From a virus (taxonomy: Duplodnaviria; Heunggongvirae; Uroviricota; Caudoviricetes), in IMG/VR virus record IMGVR_UViG_2671180755_000005: DNA of 7,647 nt; one strand, 5' to 3'. The notes below the pieces were generated by a model. That model was not told where the DNA came from. It saw only the letters and a list, made by a program, of their open reading frames with translations, and did not search any database. Shown one piece after another: positions 393-6,321 of the stretch. Position 1 is the stretch's first letter. Every line of letters begins with the position of its first letter. The translations under genes and the position numbers were made by a program.

Positions 393-1031
393 TTAAATAT
401 CTTGTTGAATTTTAAAGCATACTCCCAATATGCAAGATAGATCATCCAGCATAATTGAAGGGTAGCGAGGATTCGTGGGGACTAAAAGAATATCCGGCCC
501 TTCTATCTCCAGTTTGCGAATGACAGGCGTTGTGGTCCCTTTGGGTAAGGCAAGGACAATATTTCCTGGTTGTACGATTCGATCGGGATCAACAAAAACT
601 GTTGAACCATTTGGGATGGAAACTCCACCACCAGATGTCGACATACTGTCACTCTCTAGAACAACAGCAAAGGTATTGGCCGGGATTTCTCCGACAAGCT
701 GCACACAAGAGGTTATTGAGGAATTTTTCATATAATCACTCCAGCTTGCTGCCTGCTGAAGTGATAGTAGCGGAACCGTTTTTATCGGCGGTAAAGATAG
801 ATCAAGCGAATCACCTGTATTTAACTCTCCTCCATTAAGAAGCCAATTTTCGTTTACTTTCAATATCTTTGCCAGTGAACTTATGTAACGCGAGGACGGC
901 GCTCCTCCACCGTTCATCCATTGACTTACGGAGCCTTTTGATGCGCCAGTGGCATTGACAAGGTCTTTGCCTTTCAAGTTTAGCGCATGCATACGTTGGG
1001 TTATGCGTTCAGATATTGTTTGCTTGTTCAT
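393..1031 (-). CDS. cI: cI-like prophage repressor (N-terminal HTH, C-terminal S24 LexA-type autopeptidase domain)
   Basis: Complete 212-aa ORF. N-terminal HTH-like segment (LKGKDLVNATGASKGSVSQW), C-terminal S24 features including a Ser motif (ESDSMS) and a downstream Lys (VIRKLE). Divergent from the cro-like gene across an operator-bearing intergenic region. The ATG has no SD and abuts the operator, consistent with a leaderless PRM-type transcript. Confidence 0.9.
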   Translation of the reverse strand: MNKQTISERITQRMHALNLKGKDLVNATGASKGSVSQWMNGGGAPSSRYISSLAKILKVNENWLLNGGELNTGDSLDLSLPPIKTVPLLSLQQAASWSDYMKNSSITSCVQLVGEIPANTFAVVLESDSMSTSGGGVSIPNGSTVFVDPDRIVQPGNIVLALPKGTTTPVIRKLEIEGPDILLVPTNPRYPSIMLDDLSCILGVCFKIQQDI

Positions 1032-2886: not shown

Positions 2887-3340
2887 ACAGCAAATCCGTC
2901 TGGTGTGCCGTCAGTGCATGGACCGCTGCCGGGCGGGTGAAACGTGGCCCCCGGACCTGGCTGAGTTTGTTGCGCTGATTTCGGAGAGTGGGGCAAATCC
3001 ATTTGGTCTTACGGTGGATGCCGTGATGGAAGAGTACCGGCGCTGGCGCAATGAATCCTGGCGATACGACGGGAGTGATAAATACCCGTGGCCACAGCCT
3101 GTGCTGTACCACATCTGCCTCGAAATGCGTACCAGAGGGATTGAGCGCCAGATGACGCAAGGTGAGTTAAAACGACTTGCGGAACGGCAACTGACGAAAT
3201 GGGCAAAGCATGTTGGTAACGGGATGAGTGTTCCGCCAGTGCGACGACAACTGGAAGGGGCGAAACACCCGCAAGGGCCAACGCCAATTGAACGGCTGAA
3301 ACAGGAATACGAACGCCGGAAGGCAGCTGGTTTTATTTGA
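2678..3340 (+). CDS. Lambda P-like replication protein (helicase loader)
   Basis: 220-aa ORF. Recalled similarity to lambda P: ETWPPDLAEFVALI versus RPFLPSPGQFVAWC, KYPWPQPVLYHICLEMRTRGIERQMTQGELKRLAERQL versus SYPWKSNAHYWLVTNLYQNMRANALTDAELRRKAADEL. ATG at 2678 has the same CAAGGGGGG SD-like motif as the ydaT-like gene. Alternative in-frame starts at 2798 and 2879 have weaker SDs. Confidence 0.75.
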   Translation: MQHQVARHHGQFRKSGLHANSGNVTTDLSATETAWKLWVLMGEVYSNRWTQKNGAAPSKLWIAQIGAMTEQQIRLVCRQCMDRCRAGETWPPDLAEFVALISESGANPFGLTVDAVMEEYRRWRNESWRYDGSDKYPWPQPVLYHICLEMRTRGIERQMTQGELKRLAERQLTKWAKHVGNGMSVPPVRRQLEGAKHPQGPTPIERLKQEYERRKAAGFI

Positions 3341-4122: not shown

Positions 4123-4404
4123 ATGATACTCCGGCAGTGTGCGGGAACGATGAAGGTAAAAAGCGTTGGCGCACTTATCGGACGAACTGAAGCGGCAGTG
4201 AGAACGAAGGCACGGGAGCTGGGCATCAGCATGATGTTACGTGGTGATTTTCACCCGTCGGCAAAATATTCTCAGCGTGATATTGAGCTGGCGCGGCAAC
4301 TGCATCAGAGAGGCATGCAAAGAAGGGAAATTGCCAGAAAATTAGGCATGCCGCTGCGCATAGTGAATAACTACGTTTATTTCGACAGGAGGGTGTCTGC
4401 GTGA
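4123..4404 (+). CDS. Small hypothetical protein with two HTH-like segments
   Basis: Open frame 4000-4404. ATG at 4123 chosen as start. An alternative GTG at 4087 overlaps the upstream stop as GTGA, suggesting coupling. Neither has a clear SD, so the start is uncertain. HTH-like segments: GALIGRTEAAVRTKARELGIS and MQRREIARKLGMPLRIV. Confidence 0.6.
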   Translation: MILRQCAGTMKVKSVGALIGRTEAAVRTKARELGISMMLRGDFHPSAKYSQRDIELARQLHQRGMQRREIARKLGMPLRIVNNYVYFDRRVSA

Positions 4405-4628
4405 AAATCCTGTATCAGGATTACGGCCCGGTGGGGCAGGTGGTTATCAGCAGTACTGTAATGGAGTTTCGGAAGCATAACCGTGTGGTGGATGCTGTGC
4501 TGTTAACCTGTCCGGGGATATCGGCGAGTCGTGCAGGTGTGTTTATTATGAAGACGAAATTATATGGCAGTAAGGCGTGGATAAAGAAGGCGTATCGTGT
4601 AGCGTTGCAGGAGGTTAACAGTGAGTGA
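4401..4628 (+). CDS. Small hypothetical protein (75 aa)
   Basis: GTG at 4401 with AGGAGG 8 nt upstream. Start overlaps the upstream stop as GTGA (4401-4404). Confidence 0.65.
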   Translation: MKILYQDYGPVGQVVISSTVMEFRKHNRVVDAVLLTCPGISASRAGVFIMKTKLYGSKAWIKKAYRVALQEVNSE

Positions 4629-4932
4629 AATTAAAGAAATGCCGGTAGTTCGTGACGGATATGGCTACTGGACACATCCTGAATATGAAAAATTCTGTGA
4701 TGGTCGGGAATATATTTCAACGGAAGAGTTTAACGCCTGGATGGAGGAAAATAATCTTCAATACGTCCTCTGCTTCAGAGATGAAGGATGTGCTGACCTT
4801 GATGCGTGTGATGCTGATATTTCTGCATGGGAACCGGAACGACCAGAGGGCGATGGCTGGTTTATTGGTTCCATTCATGATACGGAAGATGGCCCGGTTT
4901 GTGTCTGGTTGCGAAATAAGGCTGAAGCATAA
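4621..4932 (+). CDS. Acidic, Cys-containing hypothetical protein (103 aa)
   Basis: GTG at 4621 with AGGAGG 7 nt upstream, overlapping the upstream gene by 8 nt. About 25 Asp/Glu against about 8 Lys/Arg, plus five Cys. Confidence 0.7.
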   Translation: MSEIKEMPVVRDGYGYWTHPEYEKFCDGREYISTEEFNAWMEENNLQYVLCFRDEGCADLDACDADISAWEPERPEGDGWFIGSIHDTEDGPVCVWLRNKAEA

Positions 4933-5036
4933 AGGCGATAAACCAACTAACAACTAAATACTGAAGATTTAAATCAGAAACGATTTTTATTAAATCCTTA
5001 ACCGGAGGGATTCCTGCACCCTCAGAACATCAGGAG

Positions 5037-5054
5037 GCCGCCCGAAAGGGCGGT
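5037..5054 (+). other. GNRA-tetraloop hairpin (CCGCCC-GAAA-GGGCGG) between an AGGAGG motif (5032-5037) and the ATG at 5060
   Basis: 6-7 bp GC stem with GAAA loop. No U-tract follows on either strand, so not a canonical intrinsic terminator. Confidence 0.4.
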
Positions 5055-5059
5055 AAGAA

Positions 5060-5278
5060 ATGAAACATTATTTAGAAAAAAATTACCCACGAAAGAGCAG
5101 AACAACAGAGTTTCTGTTTTTCATTCTGTTTATAGTGTTGATGATACCGATATCCCCGCTATTACTGGTCTGGATAATTGGAAGGACATTTGAACCAGTT
5201 ATTGAGCTATATACCGATGTGACATGGGAATCATTCAGCGCACTGCACAATAAAATTAATCCGTATAAGGAAAACTGA
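5060..5278 (+). CDS. Small membrane protein (72 aa, one predicted TM helix), AT-rich accessory gene
   Basis: Complete ORF with hydrophobic segment FLFFILFIVLMIPISPLLLVWIIG. Its AT content is clearly higher than the flanking genes. Stop TGA at 5276-5278 sits next to the ATG of the following gene. Confidence 0.55.
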   Translation: MKHYLEKNYPRKSRTTEFLFFILFIVLMIPISPLLLVWIIGRTFEPVIELYTDVTWESFSALHNKINPYKEN

Positions 5279-5279
5279 T

Positions 5280-5837
5280 ATGAGCACTATTACCAGAGAA
5301 CGCGCGGAGATTAAATCATACATCACAGGCTTCCTGAGCGACTCGGCGCACGATAACAAGTCTTCAGACAGCCTGCTGGCTAATGTGTTTCGTATCGCGC
5401 TGGCATCACTGGAAGCAGAGCCGATAGCAATGGTAGTGCCTGATGAAATGGATTTGCTTACCTGCCATCTCGACGGTGTAACTAAAACATATGCTGATGG
5501 CTGGAACGCCTGCCGCGTCGCCATGCTTCAGGCCGGAAACTTTCGGGAAAATAAGAATTCGTCAACCAACAATTTTCGGGAAATCTCGGAAACGTCAACC
5601 AGATCTCCGATAACTCTGGATGGCTGGATAAGCTGTACTGAGCGAATGCCTGAAAAGAGCCAGAACGTGCTTATTTCGATGAATATCGATAGCGAGGCTG
5701 GGCCATTAATATATTCCGCACGCTATCTCGGAGGCACGTTCCGGCGCGGAGGTATAGCAGTTAGTCCGGGTAATGATCTTAGGCAAGCAACCCACTGGAT
5801 GTCGCTACCAGAACCGCCGCAGGAGGTGAATCAATGA
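5280..5837 (+). CDS. DUF551-like phage protein
   Basis: 185-aa ORF with AAGGAAAA upstream of ATG 5280. C-terminal DGWISCTERMPE ... THWMSLPEPPQ matches the DUF551 signature as I recall it. Confidence 0.75.
   Translation: MSTITRERAEIKSYITGFLSDSAHDNKSSDSLLANVFRIALASLEAEPIAMVVPDEMDLLTCHLDGVTKTYADGWNACRVAMLQAGNFRENKNSSTNNFREISETSTRSPITLDGWISCTERMPEKSQNVLISMNIDSEAGPLIYSARYLGGTFRRGGIAVSPGNDLRQATHWMSLPEPPQEVNQ
5538..5600 (+). repeat. Imperfect 31-bp tandem direct repeat inside the DUF551-like gene
   Basis: AACTTTCGGGAAAATAAGAATTCGTCAACCA (5538-5568) versus AATTTTCGGGAAATCTCGGAAACGTCAACCA (5570-5600), 23 of 31 identical, encoding NFRENKNSSTN / NFREISETSTR. Confidence 0.6.
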
Positions 5838-5917
5838 CCTGGCCTGAAGCATTCACAACGGTAGGAATTGCGATGGCGGTGGCGCTGGTGGTGTATTCGA
5901 TTTGCCGCTGGGGATAA
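5834..5917 (+). CDS. Candidate 27-aa hydrophobic small protein (MTWPEAFTTVGIAMAVALVVYSICRWG)
   Basis: ATG at 5834 with AGGAGGTG 7 nt upstream, forming an ATGA overlap with the DUF551-like stop. Single TM-like segment. Below the ORF-track size cutoff. Confidence 0.35.
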   Translation: MTWPEAFTTVGIAMAVALVVYSICRWG

Positions 5918-5924
5918 AAACGGT

Positions 5925-5952
5925 TTGCGGGAAAAGGATAGTTAAGTAGAAT
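5925..5952 (+). promoter_or_regulatory. Candidate promoter of the hok-like mRNA (-35 TTGCGG 5925-5930, -10 TAGAAT 5947-5952)
   Basis: -10 is a 5/6 match to TATAAT with a 16-bp spacer. The predicted start around 5958-5960 coincides with the 5' element GCGGGTGCTTGAGG. Confidence 0.4.
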
Positions 5953-6070
5953 TGCTGCGGGTGCTTGAGGCTATCTGCCTCGGGCATGAACACCAACGGC
6001 AGATAGAGAAAAGCCCCAGTTAACATTACGCGTCCTGCAAGACGCTTAACATTAATCTGAGGCTCAATCC

Positions 6071-6202
6071 ATGCTGAACACATGTAGGTTAGCCTCTTAC
6101 GTGCCGAAAGGAATGGTAACGAGGAAAGACCTCTGCGAGGTGCGAATCCGAACCGGTCAGACGGAGGTCGCTGTCTTCGTAGACTACGAATCTGAGAAGT
6201 AA
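6071..6202 (+). pseudogene. hok: hok/gef-family type I toxin reading frame with in-frame loss of the transmembrane segment
   Basis: 43-codon ORF MLNTCRLASYVPKG-M-VTRKDLCEVRIRTGQTEVAVFVDYESEK. The tail matches the Gef/HokC periplasmic tail (recalled as ...VTRKDLCEVHIRTGQTEVAVFTAYESE) and the MLNTC start matches the MokC-type leader frame, but the roughly 23-codon hydrophobic segment is missing. Conserved 5' (5957-5970) and 3' (6252-6266) complementary RNA elements flank it. Confidence 0.6.
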
Positions 6203-6321
6203 GAGACCAGGCGGGGGAGTAATCTCCCGCCACCTCTGATGTGTCAGGCATCCTCAACGCACCCGCGCTTTACCATACTGAAAATGCTGTTTGAATGTTC
6301 ATCTCTGAAAGAGGACTATGA

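Follow-up and report, generated by a model that had tools for sequence, protein, structure and literature searches.

How can translation start at the ATG at position 5060 of this DNA, when the strong SD in front of it lies 22 nt upstream and a G+C hairpin fills most of the interval? A sequence-only reading had pointed out this arrangement, and both of its parts were found as described: AGGAGG at 5032-5037 is separated from the ATG by 22 nt (5038-5059), and a hairpin on a GAAA loop, CCGCCC-GAAA-GGGCGG, occupies 5038-5053. The same reading had called AGGAGG the only strong SD, which holds near the start and not within the spacer as a whole, where GGAGGG at 5004-5009 is also SD-like. Between hairpin and start no usable SD was found, UAAGAA being the entire gap. 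The window, by which we mean the whole stretch of 7,647 nucleotides analysed, belongs to an E. coli lambdoid prophage and represents its early-right (nin-type) region. The features that concern us are the following.

4621..4932, + strand: upstream gene, 103 aa, phrog_1372, no Pfam match
4933..4988, + strand: AT- and CA-rich spacer, part of the upstream module and outside the conserved element, holding the palindrome GATTTAAATC
4989..5029, + strand: 5′ half of the conserved linker, holding TAATCCTTAACC, the SD-like orphan GGAGGG (5004-5009) and, at 5019-5023, CCCTC, which resembles an anti-SD
5030..5037, + strand: SD motif CAGGAGG at the left edge of the conserved core, its GAGG invariant in 12/12 core haplotypes
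5038..5053, + strand: RNA hairpin with the GNRA tetraloop GAAA (5044-5047) on a 6-bp G+C stem (5038-5043 / 5048-5053)
5054..5059, + strand: A-rich gap UAAGAA, 6 nt from hairpin to start, opening with a stop codon in the frame of the gene
5060..5278, + strand: DUF4014 gene, 72 aa, full-length match to Pfam PF13198, stop TGA at 5276-5278
5280..5837, + strand: DUF551-domain gene, its ATG 1 nt past the DUF4014 stop

The DUF4014 gene and its surroundings

The gene at 4621..4932 ends a series of overlapping, translationally coupled early-right genes, and the 127-nt gap that closes this long series (4933-5059) is the sole sizeable intergenic gap in the operon. In phage Rac-SA53 a homologue of this gene, rac22, is followed by the same spacer. 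Because positions 4933-4988 vary among copies of the element described below, yet are common to Rac-SA53 along with the upstream gene, we assigned them to the upstream module. On the other side, the distance of 1 nt between the DUF4014 stop and the next ATG indicates that the DUF551 gene is probably translationally coupled to DUF4014; its SD, AAGGA (5267-5271), lies inside the last codons of DUF4014. A scan of the whole window against Rfam 15 (E ≤ 1) returned sok (5959-6128) and one chance match only.

The 72-aa ORF is a real gene. Its residues 1-72 aligned with positions 1-72 of the PF13198 profile at E = 1e-24 and 87.2 bits (cut-off 23.2), and phrog_1832 matched it at E = 1e-44. A small membrane protein had been proposed from the letters, and the product is indeed predicted to span the membrane once; the positive-inside rule predicts a cytoplasmic N-terminus and a C-terminus outside. 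In the AlphaFold model (mean pLDDT 79) two helices are formed, at 14-28 and 31-66. Regarding function, no match was obtained in PADLOC or NCBIfam, nor to PDB sequences or BFVD folds. Databases name the family 'sugar/O-polysaccharide acetyltransferase inhibitor' and 'released from the phage upon host infection'; neither name could be traced to any paper, and DUF4014 and 'acetyltransferase inhibitor' went unmentioned in a literature search. Among 185,579 species representatives, DUF4014 was present in E. coli and S. flexneri only.

The block 4933-5280 had been described as more AT-rich than its flanks and, on this ground, as separately acquired cargo. The first statement is correct for the gene, whose GC content is 35.6% where the window as a whole has 50.2% (0.5th percentile among 219-nt windows), and the 348-nt block is essentially the AT-richest part of the window (0.4th percentile), but the spacer by itself, at 42.5% GC, reaches merely the 15th percentile. 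The GC deficit of the gene resides in codon positions 1 and 2 (0.37 and 0.30), and its AT-richness comes mainly from amino-acid composition. At the third position, DUF4014 (0.397) is not below its neighbours (0.356 for the upstream gene, 0.371 for cI and 0.374 for a YgiW-family gene), thus foreign origin is not demonstrated by composition alone. The notion of acquired cargo nevertheless survives in spirit, though on other grounds and between other limits: many lambdoid prophages carry DUF4014 as a mosaic cassette, in ea-type (early-left accessory) as well as nin-type regions, and its homology borders fall at 5030 or 4989 on the left and at 5282-5288 on the right, where 76 aligned segments end. 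Less remained of the 10-bp palindrome to which attention had been drawn. GATTTAAATC is really located at 4966-4975, one base off from the reported 4967-4976, and the window contains eight such palindromes against 7.2 ± 2.7 in composition-preserving shuffles. We rejected it as a site, given this chance-level count and its position outside the conserved element, in sequence left of 4989 that is variable among copies.

Could the hairpin simply be an intrinsic terminator or attenuator that parts DUF4014 from the upstream genes, the block then being a moron? A G+C-rich stem-loop in an intergenic gap, with an AT-rich gene next to it, would fit such a role. The U-tract is lacking, however, on both strands (+ strand UAAGAAAUGAAA, − strand CCUCCUGAUG): in the intrinsic-terminator test the hairpin was present and the U-tract absent, UAAGAAAUG coming after the stem on the + strand and CCUCCUGAUG on the −. 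Consensus scanning of 4300-6000 gave 0 terminators and no nearby + strand promoter, and promoter-like sites were not found in 4933-5059 either. Moreover, the start codon lies 6 nt past the stem and the gene stops 1 nt from the next ATG. The sequence already contradicts a terminator, which we consider highly improbable. A classical moron was set aside for similar reasons, its own promoter and terminator not being found and the stop lying 1 nt before the ATG at 5280.

A 67-nt linker shared by lambdoid prophages

Positions 4989-5055 are one copy of a conserved intergenic linker of 67 nt in lambdoid prophages of E. coli, Shigella and Salmonella. Its 3′ core (5030-5054) consists of a strong SD joined to a very stable GNRA hairpin, and column identity over the linker was 94-96% in alignments A1 and A3. 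Of 5426 complete E. coli genomes, 2338 (~43%) contain the element, at 3275 places and with at most four copies per genome; many of these genomes match the window at 4989-5055 alone, with 97% identity and no annotated feature beneath. The exact SD plus hairpin was found in more than 120 IMG/VR contigs. A blastn search of the phage collection retrieved the element in 19 records, HK620 not among them, and it was annotated in none. It is absent from K-12 Rac, gave no match in Rfam 15, and the literal hairpin sequence had no occurrence in a literature search. The Pas sRNA, described in a preprint, was considered as its identity and discarded, as other loci are concerned there.

The element is always oriented like the gene that follows. 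Downstream of it at least four protein families with no relation to one another were seen, upstream at least five unrelated contexts, and it recurs where blocks of coupled genes border each other. In one of these contexts, found in other prophages (context B), the first 25 nt of the linker constitute the ribosome-binding site of a 70-aa ORF. A mini-ORF through the hairpin (MSGGRPKGR) was rejected, as it exists in context B only and is missing from the window. Homology sets in at 5030-5031, with (T)CAGGAGG, in four upstream contexts and at 5033, with GGAGG, in the Salmonella copies; the latter have the full upstream half in common with the others but read CTGGAGG at the SD motif. Accordingly, aligned segments start at 4989 (65 segments) or 5030 (67) and end at 5054-5062 (89). 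Single prophages were also encountered in which two copies lie 1064 bp apart. In E. coli OkiPb01710 (L209), several changes affect the 5′ half of the linker and none the SD-hairpin core. Three helices tested for this 5′ half (4989-5029) are mutually exclusive and none was retained: AAUCCUU/AGGGAUU and GAGGG/CCCUC are broken by variants, without covariation, and the SD-masking helix UCCU/AGGA given by RNAalifold likewise shows no covariation.

Since the element stands between heterologous genes in many prophages, with no more than four copies per genome, it is also a conserved boundary sequence. In this second role it would serve homologous recombination, by which accessory-gene cassettes could be swapped with their expression signals intact. 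The breakpoints at its edges are observed directly, while the recombination mechanism is what we infer from them. A bolder extension would make of the 67-nt element a dedicated cassette-exchange system with a self-contained translation start, in which the SD and an insulating GNRA hairpin would allow the insertion and expression of any small gene whatever its sequence context, copies of which drive gene capture, deletion and exchange in the manner of PeSL mini-circles or integron attC, and whose genes might be co-regulated by a trans factor recognising the hairpin. We regard this extension as speculative and unlikely.

The hairpin between SD and start codon

The arrangement had led to the suggestion that folding could bring SD and start into normal spacing. 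We therefore examine what is predicted for the RNA. Folding of 5025-5070 gave -16.4 kcal/mol (z = -4.3), and 0/200 shuffles were as stable. The hairpin alone amounts to -12.4 kcal/mol (16 nt), or to -14.4 (18 nt) when an optional seventh pair, G5037-U5054, is included; its pair probabilities are 0.99-1.0 and its forced opening would cost 14.8 kcal/mol. An SD-like GGCGGU (5049-5054) is sequestered in the stem. Within the window itself, a partial pairing of the SD core with CCUC at 5020-5023 is also predicted (unpaired probabilities of 0.02-0.2), an observation that counts against a split ribosome-binding site.

The distance between hairpin and start codon follows a rule. It is 6 nt in 80/80 DUF4014 copies, 7 nt in a family of 60 aa (42 copies) and 9 nt in a third family (18 copies), while 8 or 10 nt were met in single cases. 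These gaps of 6-10 nt, which represent six of the seven junction classes, contain no SD. An 11-nt gap is seen in one family only, and there an own GGAG is present; the fact that this family keeps the element together with its own SD past the hairpin means that the upstream SD is not always needed. DUF4014 copies devoid of the hairpin carry GGAG, 6 nt, and then ATG or GTG, that is, the effective spacing of the window.

We favour, with somewhat better than even confidence, a split ribosome-binding site like those of T4 genes 38 and 25, which doubles as a mosaic boundary sequence. On the early-right mRNA the hairpin would essentially always be folded. If it is permanently folded, it would loop out 16 nt of the 22-nt interval separating AGGAGG from AUG, so that the two would effectively be 6 nt apart, and a 30S subunit on the SD could then set AUG 5060 in the P site. 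The element would in this way act as an independent translation restart for any gene that follows, here DUF4014 with DUF551 coupled behind. The suggestion that translation may depend on RNA structure is supported on the comparative side, by the conserved unit, the spacing rule and the hairpin-less GGAG copies; compensatory changes do not add to it, and we infer the dependence from these comparisons.

Variation in the stem was analysed over its six core pairs in 12 core haplotypes. Among the variant cells, 8 were one-sided changes preserving a G-U pair, 2 were broken and 0 compensatory; shuffle controls for stem covariation were uninformative. In the 5′ arm, each of the five C's appears as U in some copy with the G-U pair kept, as against a single G-to-A change in the 3′ arm, and the loop varies to GGAA only, so that GNRA is retained. 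This strand asymmetry points to a constraint on the sense RNA. Two stem-weakening variants, CGGCCC (three phages) and GGAUGG (one context), have no visible compensation, and ten look-ups of divergent homologues for covariation similarly yielded one-sided stem changes only. A search of 1.4 Mb of DNA from related prophages revealed no case in which a hairpin of another sequence stands between SD and start; we are dealing with one sequence family, not with a general design.

As copies are 94-97% identical, conservation may reflect recent recombinational spread instead of selection. The element could then be a linker acting at the DNA level only, recently spread, whose RNA hairpin has no function of its own. 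High identity between heterologous flanks with breakpoints at the edges, the pairs of copies within single prophages and the missing compensatory covariation would all be accounted for, and boundary sequences of this kind were proposed for lambdoid phages (Susskind & Botstein 1978; Clark et al. 2001, both as cited in PMC3029335). What a mere linker would not lead one to expect is the strict orientation to the downstream gene together with the spacing rule, an SD-hairpin core better conserved than the 5′ half (for example in OkiPb01710), strand-asymmetric substitutions and a loop variant that is still GNRA. We therefore judge this explanation decidedly unlikely.

Another role at the RNA level was weighed against the split ribosome-binding site, namely that the hairpin is mainly an element of mRNA stability or processing, either a barrier that shields the upstream block from 3′-to-5′ exonucleases or a 5′ protection after a cut by RNase E within the AU-rich spacer, the adjacent SD being incidental. 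The hairpin would then determine how strongly the blocks of the early operon are expressed relative to one another. Stable intercistronic hairpins are known to protect upstream mRNA in E. coli operons, as REP elements do in malE-malF, which counts in favour of such a role. It also agrees with a very stable G+C GNRA hairpin, without U-tract, in the operon's only sizeable gap, with AU-rich single-stranded sequence just 5′ of the hairpin, with recurrence at the borders of coupled-gene blocks and with the one family in which a second SD follows the hairpin. Left unexplained are the onset of homology at the SD with its invariant GAGG and the SD-free gap of 6-10 nt in six of seven junction classes; in context B, furthermore, the upstream gene stops 4 nt before the SD, hence no cleavable spacer exists there. 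Taken together this makes a stability element unlikely. An RNase III site at the hairpin was dismissed by reasoning, a stem of 6-7 bp being too short.

The repetition of the same hairpin at the ribosome-binding sites of several unrelated genes, at most four per genome, is also the layout of a regulon operator. The hairpin could accordingly be bound by a trans-acting RNA-binding protein (a phage repressor, an N-like antiterminator or host CsrA on two GGA motifs) co-regulating the genes that bear the element. The GNRA-type loop and its G+C stem recall the lambda boxB hairpin, GCCCU-GAAAA-AGGGC; two GGA motifs are indeed present at 5005-5007 and 5033-5035, 28 nt apart. On the other hand, the boxA-like sequence (CGCTCTT) is not adjacent, the copies lie deep within operons and not just past pL or pR, the hairpin includes neither SD nor AUG, no candidate for the binding protein regularly accompanies it, neighbour genes varying between copies, and Rfam gave no match. 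An operator seems quite improbable to us. A nut site in particular was excluded: no boxA is adjacent, and the element is found ~4 kb inside the operon, as well as in ea-type regions, in several copies.

Few split ribosome-binding sites are known so far, each specific to one gene and all in T4-type phages. If the split ribosome-binding site is the true reading, a portable SD-hairpin before unrelated genes, in ~43% of complete E. coli genomes, would make it a general, context-independent expression signal, and would provide an annotation rule for starts seemingly without SD. The element is besides an unusually clear instance of the long-debated short boundary sequences at lambdoid mosaic joints, and permits direct tests of whether recombination at expression signals drives the shuffling of accessory genes in Shiga-toxin and other prophages. 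On the practical side, the hairpin would represent a natural compact RBS insulator.

Comparison with known systems

The closest parallel to our preferred reading is offered by T4 genes 38 and 25, where structure reduces the spacing from 22 to 5 nt and from 27 to 11 nt, respectively, and where destabilising mutations lower initiation (Nivinskas et al. 1999; Malys & Nivinskas 2009, as reviewed in PMC3014915). Here, as there, a strong SD is too distant (22 nt in this locus and in gene 38, more than about 15 nt being unworkable), the hairpin is placed wholly between SD and AUG with an effective 6 nt that falls within about 5-11 nt, and in the window no alternative SD exists at normal distance, one family elsewhere having GGAG. 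However, each T4 structure is bound to one junction, whereas one SD-hairpin unit here precedes at least four gene families at a mosaic joint. The T4 cases were also proven by mutagenesis and probing, while the present element is known from its sequence; sequence similarity between the two is nil.

The PeSL of T4-type phages combine an early promoter with a transcription-terminating stem-loop (Arbiol et al. 2010, PMC2839356). Like them, the element is a short conserved regulatory sequence with a stem-loop, repeated between small non-essential genes in plastic regions, and appears to mediate modular shuffling through recombination between copies. Unlike them, it has neither a sigma-70 early promoter nor a U-tract, and carries a translation signal instead.

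That short boundary sequences underlie lambdoid mosaicism was proposed by Susskind & Botstein (1978) and by Clark et al. (2001), as cited in PMC3029335; according to the same source, a search for them fails at most mosaic joints. The element shares with such linkers a short homology at gene boundaries, heterologous modules on either side and breakpoints at the edges. In contrast to most mosaic joints, it is a clear and very widespread example with an internal expression signal.

Morons of lambdoid phages, reportedly described by Juhala et al. in 2000, have their own promoter and their own terminator. DUF4014 is comparable in being a small accessory gene, present or absent at a given place among phages, and AT-rich, though with a GC3 in the range of its neighbours; it differs in being expressed as part of the early operon, with probable coupling to the gene that follows. 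Finally, extra-stable tetraloop hairpins in phage intercistronic regions and REP-type stabilisers are said to have been reported by Tuerk et al. in 1988 and Newbury et al. in 1987. The element likewise presents a C(GNRA)G on a G+C stem in an intercistronic position. Yet those hairpins either influence how stable the mRNA is or have been given no role, whereas this one has its set place between SD and start codon, at a constrained distance.

The DUF4014 gene and its surroundings

The window comes from an E. coli lambdoid prophage, of which it covers the immunity, replication and nin-type region; it has matches at 100% identity in chromosomes of O157:H7 and further Shiga-toxin-producing E. coli. 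The order of its features is as follows.

393-1031, minus strand: cI-like repressor
ending at 4932, plus strand: long series of overlapping genes
between 4932 and 5060: intergenic gap of 127 nt
5060-5278, plus strand: 72-aa ORF, RefSeq 'DUF4014 family protein'
downstream of DUF4014: DUF551 gene, its ATG 1 nt past the DUF4014 stop
beyond the DUF551 gene: hok/sok locus, then a YgiW-family gene

RefSeq annotates no feature in the 127-nt gap. Directly past the upstream gene's stop lies a CA-rich tract (AAACCAACTAACAACTAAATACT, 4940-4962), common to phage Rac-SA53. In the hok/sok locus (5959-6283; sok Rfam match 5959-6128, 100.6 bits), hok is truncated: compared with the copy in O157:H7, it has lost 83 nt (window 6113/6114 = 6412/6496 of the related locus L001). 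Its start codon and membrane segment are thereby lost, and only ORF 6071-6202 remains, with the C-terminal end ...CEVRIRTGQTEVAVFVDYESEK.

The 5060-5278 product has a full-length match to Pfam DUF4014 (E = 1e-24) and also matches phrog_1832 (E = 1e-44). Nearly all homologues are 72 aa long, and the motif LHNKxNPYK at their C-terminus is invariant. The AlphaFold model (mean pLDDT 79) has two helices, at 14-28 and 31-66, and residues 17-41 form a hydrophobic stretch. From the net charges of the basic N-terminal tail (about +3) and the acidic C-terminal part (about -2) we infer, by the positive-inside rule, a single-pass membrane protein oriented N-in, C-out. Searches for defence, NCBIfam, PDB and viral-fold matches were negative, and no paper was found as the source of two names that databases give it, 'acetyltransferase inhibitor' and 'released from the phage upon host infection'. 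Its distribution is narrow: E. coli and S. flexneri are the only carriers among 185,579 species representatives, and Salmonella copies exist beyond that set.

The sequence-only reading had described 4933-5280 as an AT-rich inserted block. This holds for the gene (35.6% GC vs 50.2% for the window, 0.5th percentile) and for the 348-nt block, about the most AT-rich stretch in the window, but not for the spacer by itself, which is unremarkable (15th percentile). GC is low at codon positions 1 (0.37) and 2 (0.30), whereas GC3 (0.397) is not below that of several neighbouring genes; the composition thus stems largely from a membrane protein rich in Ile, Leu, Phe, Lys and Asn. A 10-bp palindrome claimed for the spacer, actually at 4966-4975, was rejected as a feature since such palindromes are at chance level in the window (8 observed vs 7.2 +/- 2.7 expected). 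The inserted-block reading needs other borders and an argument other than composition.

A portable element at mosaic joints

The Shine-Dalgarno sequence (SD) AGGAGG (5032-5037) is separated by 22 nt from the ATG at 5060, and the hairpin CCGCCC-GAAA-GGGCGG (5038-5053) sits between them, with G5037-U5054 as an optional closing pair; SD, hairpin and start lie where the sequence-only reading had put them. Folding of 5025-5070 confirmed the hairpin (-16.4 kcal/mol, z = -4.3, 0 of 200 shuffles equally stable). In a 151-nt context all stem pairs have probabilities of 0.99-1.0, and opening the 16 hairpin nt costs 14.8 kcal/mol.

For 80 viral contigs picked by protein alone, we compared what lies upstream of DUF4014. 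Most copies carry CAGGAGGCCGCCCGAAAGGGCGG, then 6 nt, then ATG, and two very different upstream sequences precede this shared SD-hairpin. Searched alone, the SD-hairpin matched at least 120 viral contigs; among the matches listed, it always has one orientation to the downstream gene, and precedes at least four unrelated families, plus several single cases:

DUF4014
60-aa MRKFKIIIETG family
135-277-aa TELTKE family
171-174-aa MEITKERLL family

Further look-ups brought the upstream contexts to at least five unrelated ones, in four of which homology starts at (T)CAGGAGG; the Salmonella copies share the whole upstream half and their SD reads CTGGAGG.

A 71-nt query (4989-5059) against 5426 complete E. 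coli genomes found 2338 positive, with 3275 places, up to 4 per genome, nearly all at 95-100% identity and almost none overlapping an annotated feature. In many genomes, the sole match to a 1.7-kb query was window 4989-5055. This 67-nt element has no Rfam match and is without annotation in 19 phage records; its sequence occurs in none of the papers searched. Lambdoid boundary sequences are described in Clark et al. 2001, and this one may be among them. Actinobacillus phage vB_Apl-pPE4 (PP818812.1), labelled as an Actinobacillus pleuropneumoniae phage, carries an E. coli-type linker (97% identity, 11348-11414) and a DUF4014 gene (12350-12567, 84.5%); its host label or assembly may be wrong.

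Across about 200 related loci, segment starts accumulate at 4989 and 5030, and ends at 5054-5062 and 5282-5288; as the loci were selected for DUF4014 or the hairpin, these positions are informative and their frequencies are not. Together with the stand-alone matches, the clustering defines three units.

upstream gene and 4933-4988: upstream module, common to phage Rac-SA53
4989-5055: 67-nt linker, whose 3' core (5030-5054) is also found alone
DUF4014 cassette, ending just within the start of the next gene

Homology of the cassette to other prophages stops at 5282-5288, next to an SD and start: the final DUF4014 codons TAT AAG GAA AAC TGA T ATG (within 5264-5288) include AAGGA (5267-5271) and adjoin the DUF551 start. 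The right border is thus also an expression signal, and this overlap may partly constrain the invariant C-terminal NPYKEN. Another joint just within the DUF4014 coding sequence is suggested by comparison of copies, as the window reads MKHYLEKN (5060-5083) where the family majority has MTTLFRKE/K, and 14 aligned segments begin only at 5065.

Some prophages carry two linker copies 1064 bp apart, each heading a block of coupled small genes. There, a 70-aa ORF has AATCCTTAACyGGAGG, in the 5' part of the linker, as its ribosome-binding site and stops 4 nt ahead of the SD-hairpin. Where such an ORF precedes the SD-hairpin (e.g. 1460-1500 of locus L043), a 9-codon mini-ORF (ATG TCA GGA GGC CGC CCG AAA GGG CGG TAA) spans SD and hairpin, its ATG overlapping the upstream stop (TAATG) and its end 3 nt before the DUF4014 ATG; its translation would melt the hairpin. 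At the position of this ATG the window reads ACA. Many loci (L043-L062, L067 and others, ~1497-1580) carry frameshifted DUF4014 pseudogenes (MVTLFRKNIRERVEQQNFCFSFCLS*), the gene having decayed while the SD-hairpin upstream stays intact. In two Logan assemblies (L221/L222; SRR14403610, SRR1569647), DUF4014 follows a degenerate hairpin (3' arm GGAUGG) with SD AAGAGG and adjoins a gene with an Activator-TraM domain, which suggests a plasmid or conjugative element, not a prophage.

A candidate split ribosome-binding site

The best available explanation, which we consider probable with some reserve, is that SD, hairpin and start form a split ribosome-binding site. The hairpin-to-start gap is 6 nt before DUF4014 (80 copies), 7 nt in 42 copies and 9 nt in 18, with single cases of 8 or 10 nt; no class has an SD within this 6-10 nt gap, and the only family with an 11-nt gap carries its own GGAG. 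If the element had no part in initiation, most genes would be expected to have space for a normal SD ahead of them, so this spacing rule supports the split site. The rival reading, a role in mRNA stability or processing, is a minor possibility. Hairpin-less DUF4014 copies (e.g. 933W L0067), beside the preceding gene's stop, have GGAG exactly 6 nt from ATG/GTG, a natural control that also favours the split site. A terminator or moron is contradicted by the lack of a U-tract and of any promoter found, and is very improbable.

Stem variation was compared among 12 core haplotypes, including the 5'-arm forms CCGCCU, CCGUCU, CUGCUC and UCGUCC. Each of the five C's of the 5' arm occurs as U in some copy, always keeping a G-U pair; for the five 3'-arm G's, a single G-to-A change was recorded. 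Since C-to-U in the 5' arm and G-to-A in the 3' arm represent one type of mutation that differs only in the DNA strand affected, their inequality suggests that selection acts on the sense RNA. The reading as a DNA-only recombination linker is unlikely. Of the variant cells in the six core pairs, 8 are still paired and 2 broken; by a rough estimate, a random substitution in a G-C pair would keep pairing in 25-33% of cases. Events are possibly non-independent and formal shuffle controls uninformative, which leaves the bias suggestive only. The sole loop variant, GGAA (two contexts), is still GNRA. A further rival, in which the hairpin is an operator for an RNA-binding protein, is quite improbable.

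Several observations count against the split site or are not accounted for by it: one gene family is independent of the upstream SD, the stem is weakened in two variants that show no compensating change, the SD core, as placed in the window, has a predicted pairing with CCUC (5020-5023), and many DUF4014 genes that follow an intact SD-hairpin are frameshifted. High identity among copies could reflect recent spread, not constraint. The 5' half of the linker (4989-5029) almost equals the core in conservation, and the variants support none of the three helices considered for it. In it lie an orphan SD-like GGAGGG (5004-5009), which no ORF follows, and anti-SD-like UCCU (4995-4998) and CCCUC (5019-5023) that could mask the real SD. 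Structure-dependent translation, as proposed from the sequence, gains from the spacing rule, the natural control and the stem bias, but no compensatory change was seen among the 12 haplotypes and the case stays suggestive.

In such a split site, a self-contained SD, a locked G+C hairpin and an A-rich gap would leave the initiation region unpaired whichever gene had joined, and this context-independent start would fit a signal located at recombination joints. It would restart translation beyond the sole long untranslated gap of the operon. The near-identical repeats would supply 25-67 nt of homology for cassette exchange, deletion and capture, a role proposed for lambdoid boundary sequences (as cited in PMC3029335) and documented for the PeSL cassettes that T4-type phages carry (PMC2839356).

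The arrangement resembles the split sites of T4 genes 38 and 25, where a hairpin between SD and AUG cuts the spacing from 22 to 5 nt and from 27 to 11 nt, and hairpin-weakening mutations reduce initiation (PMC3014915); here 22 nt would become 6 nt. The proposed mechanism is of a known kind; what appears new is that a single portable unit of this sort occurs ahead of unrelated genes and at the joints of the mosaic.
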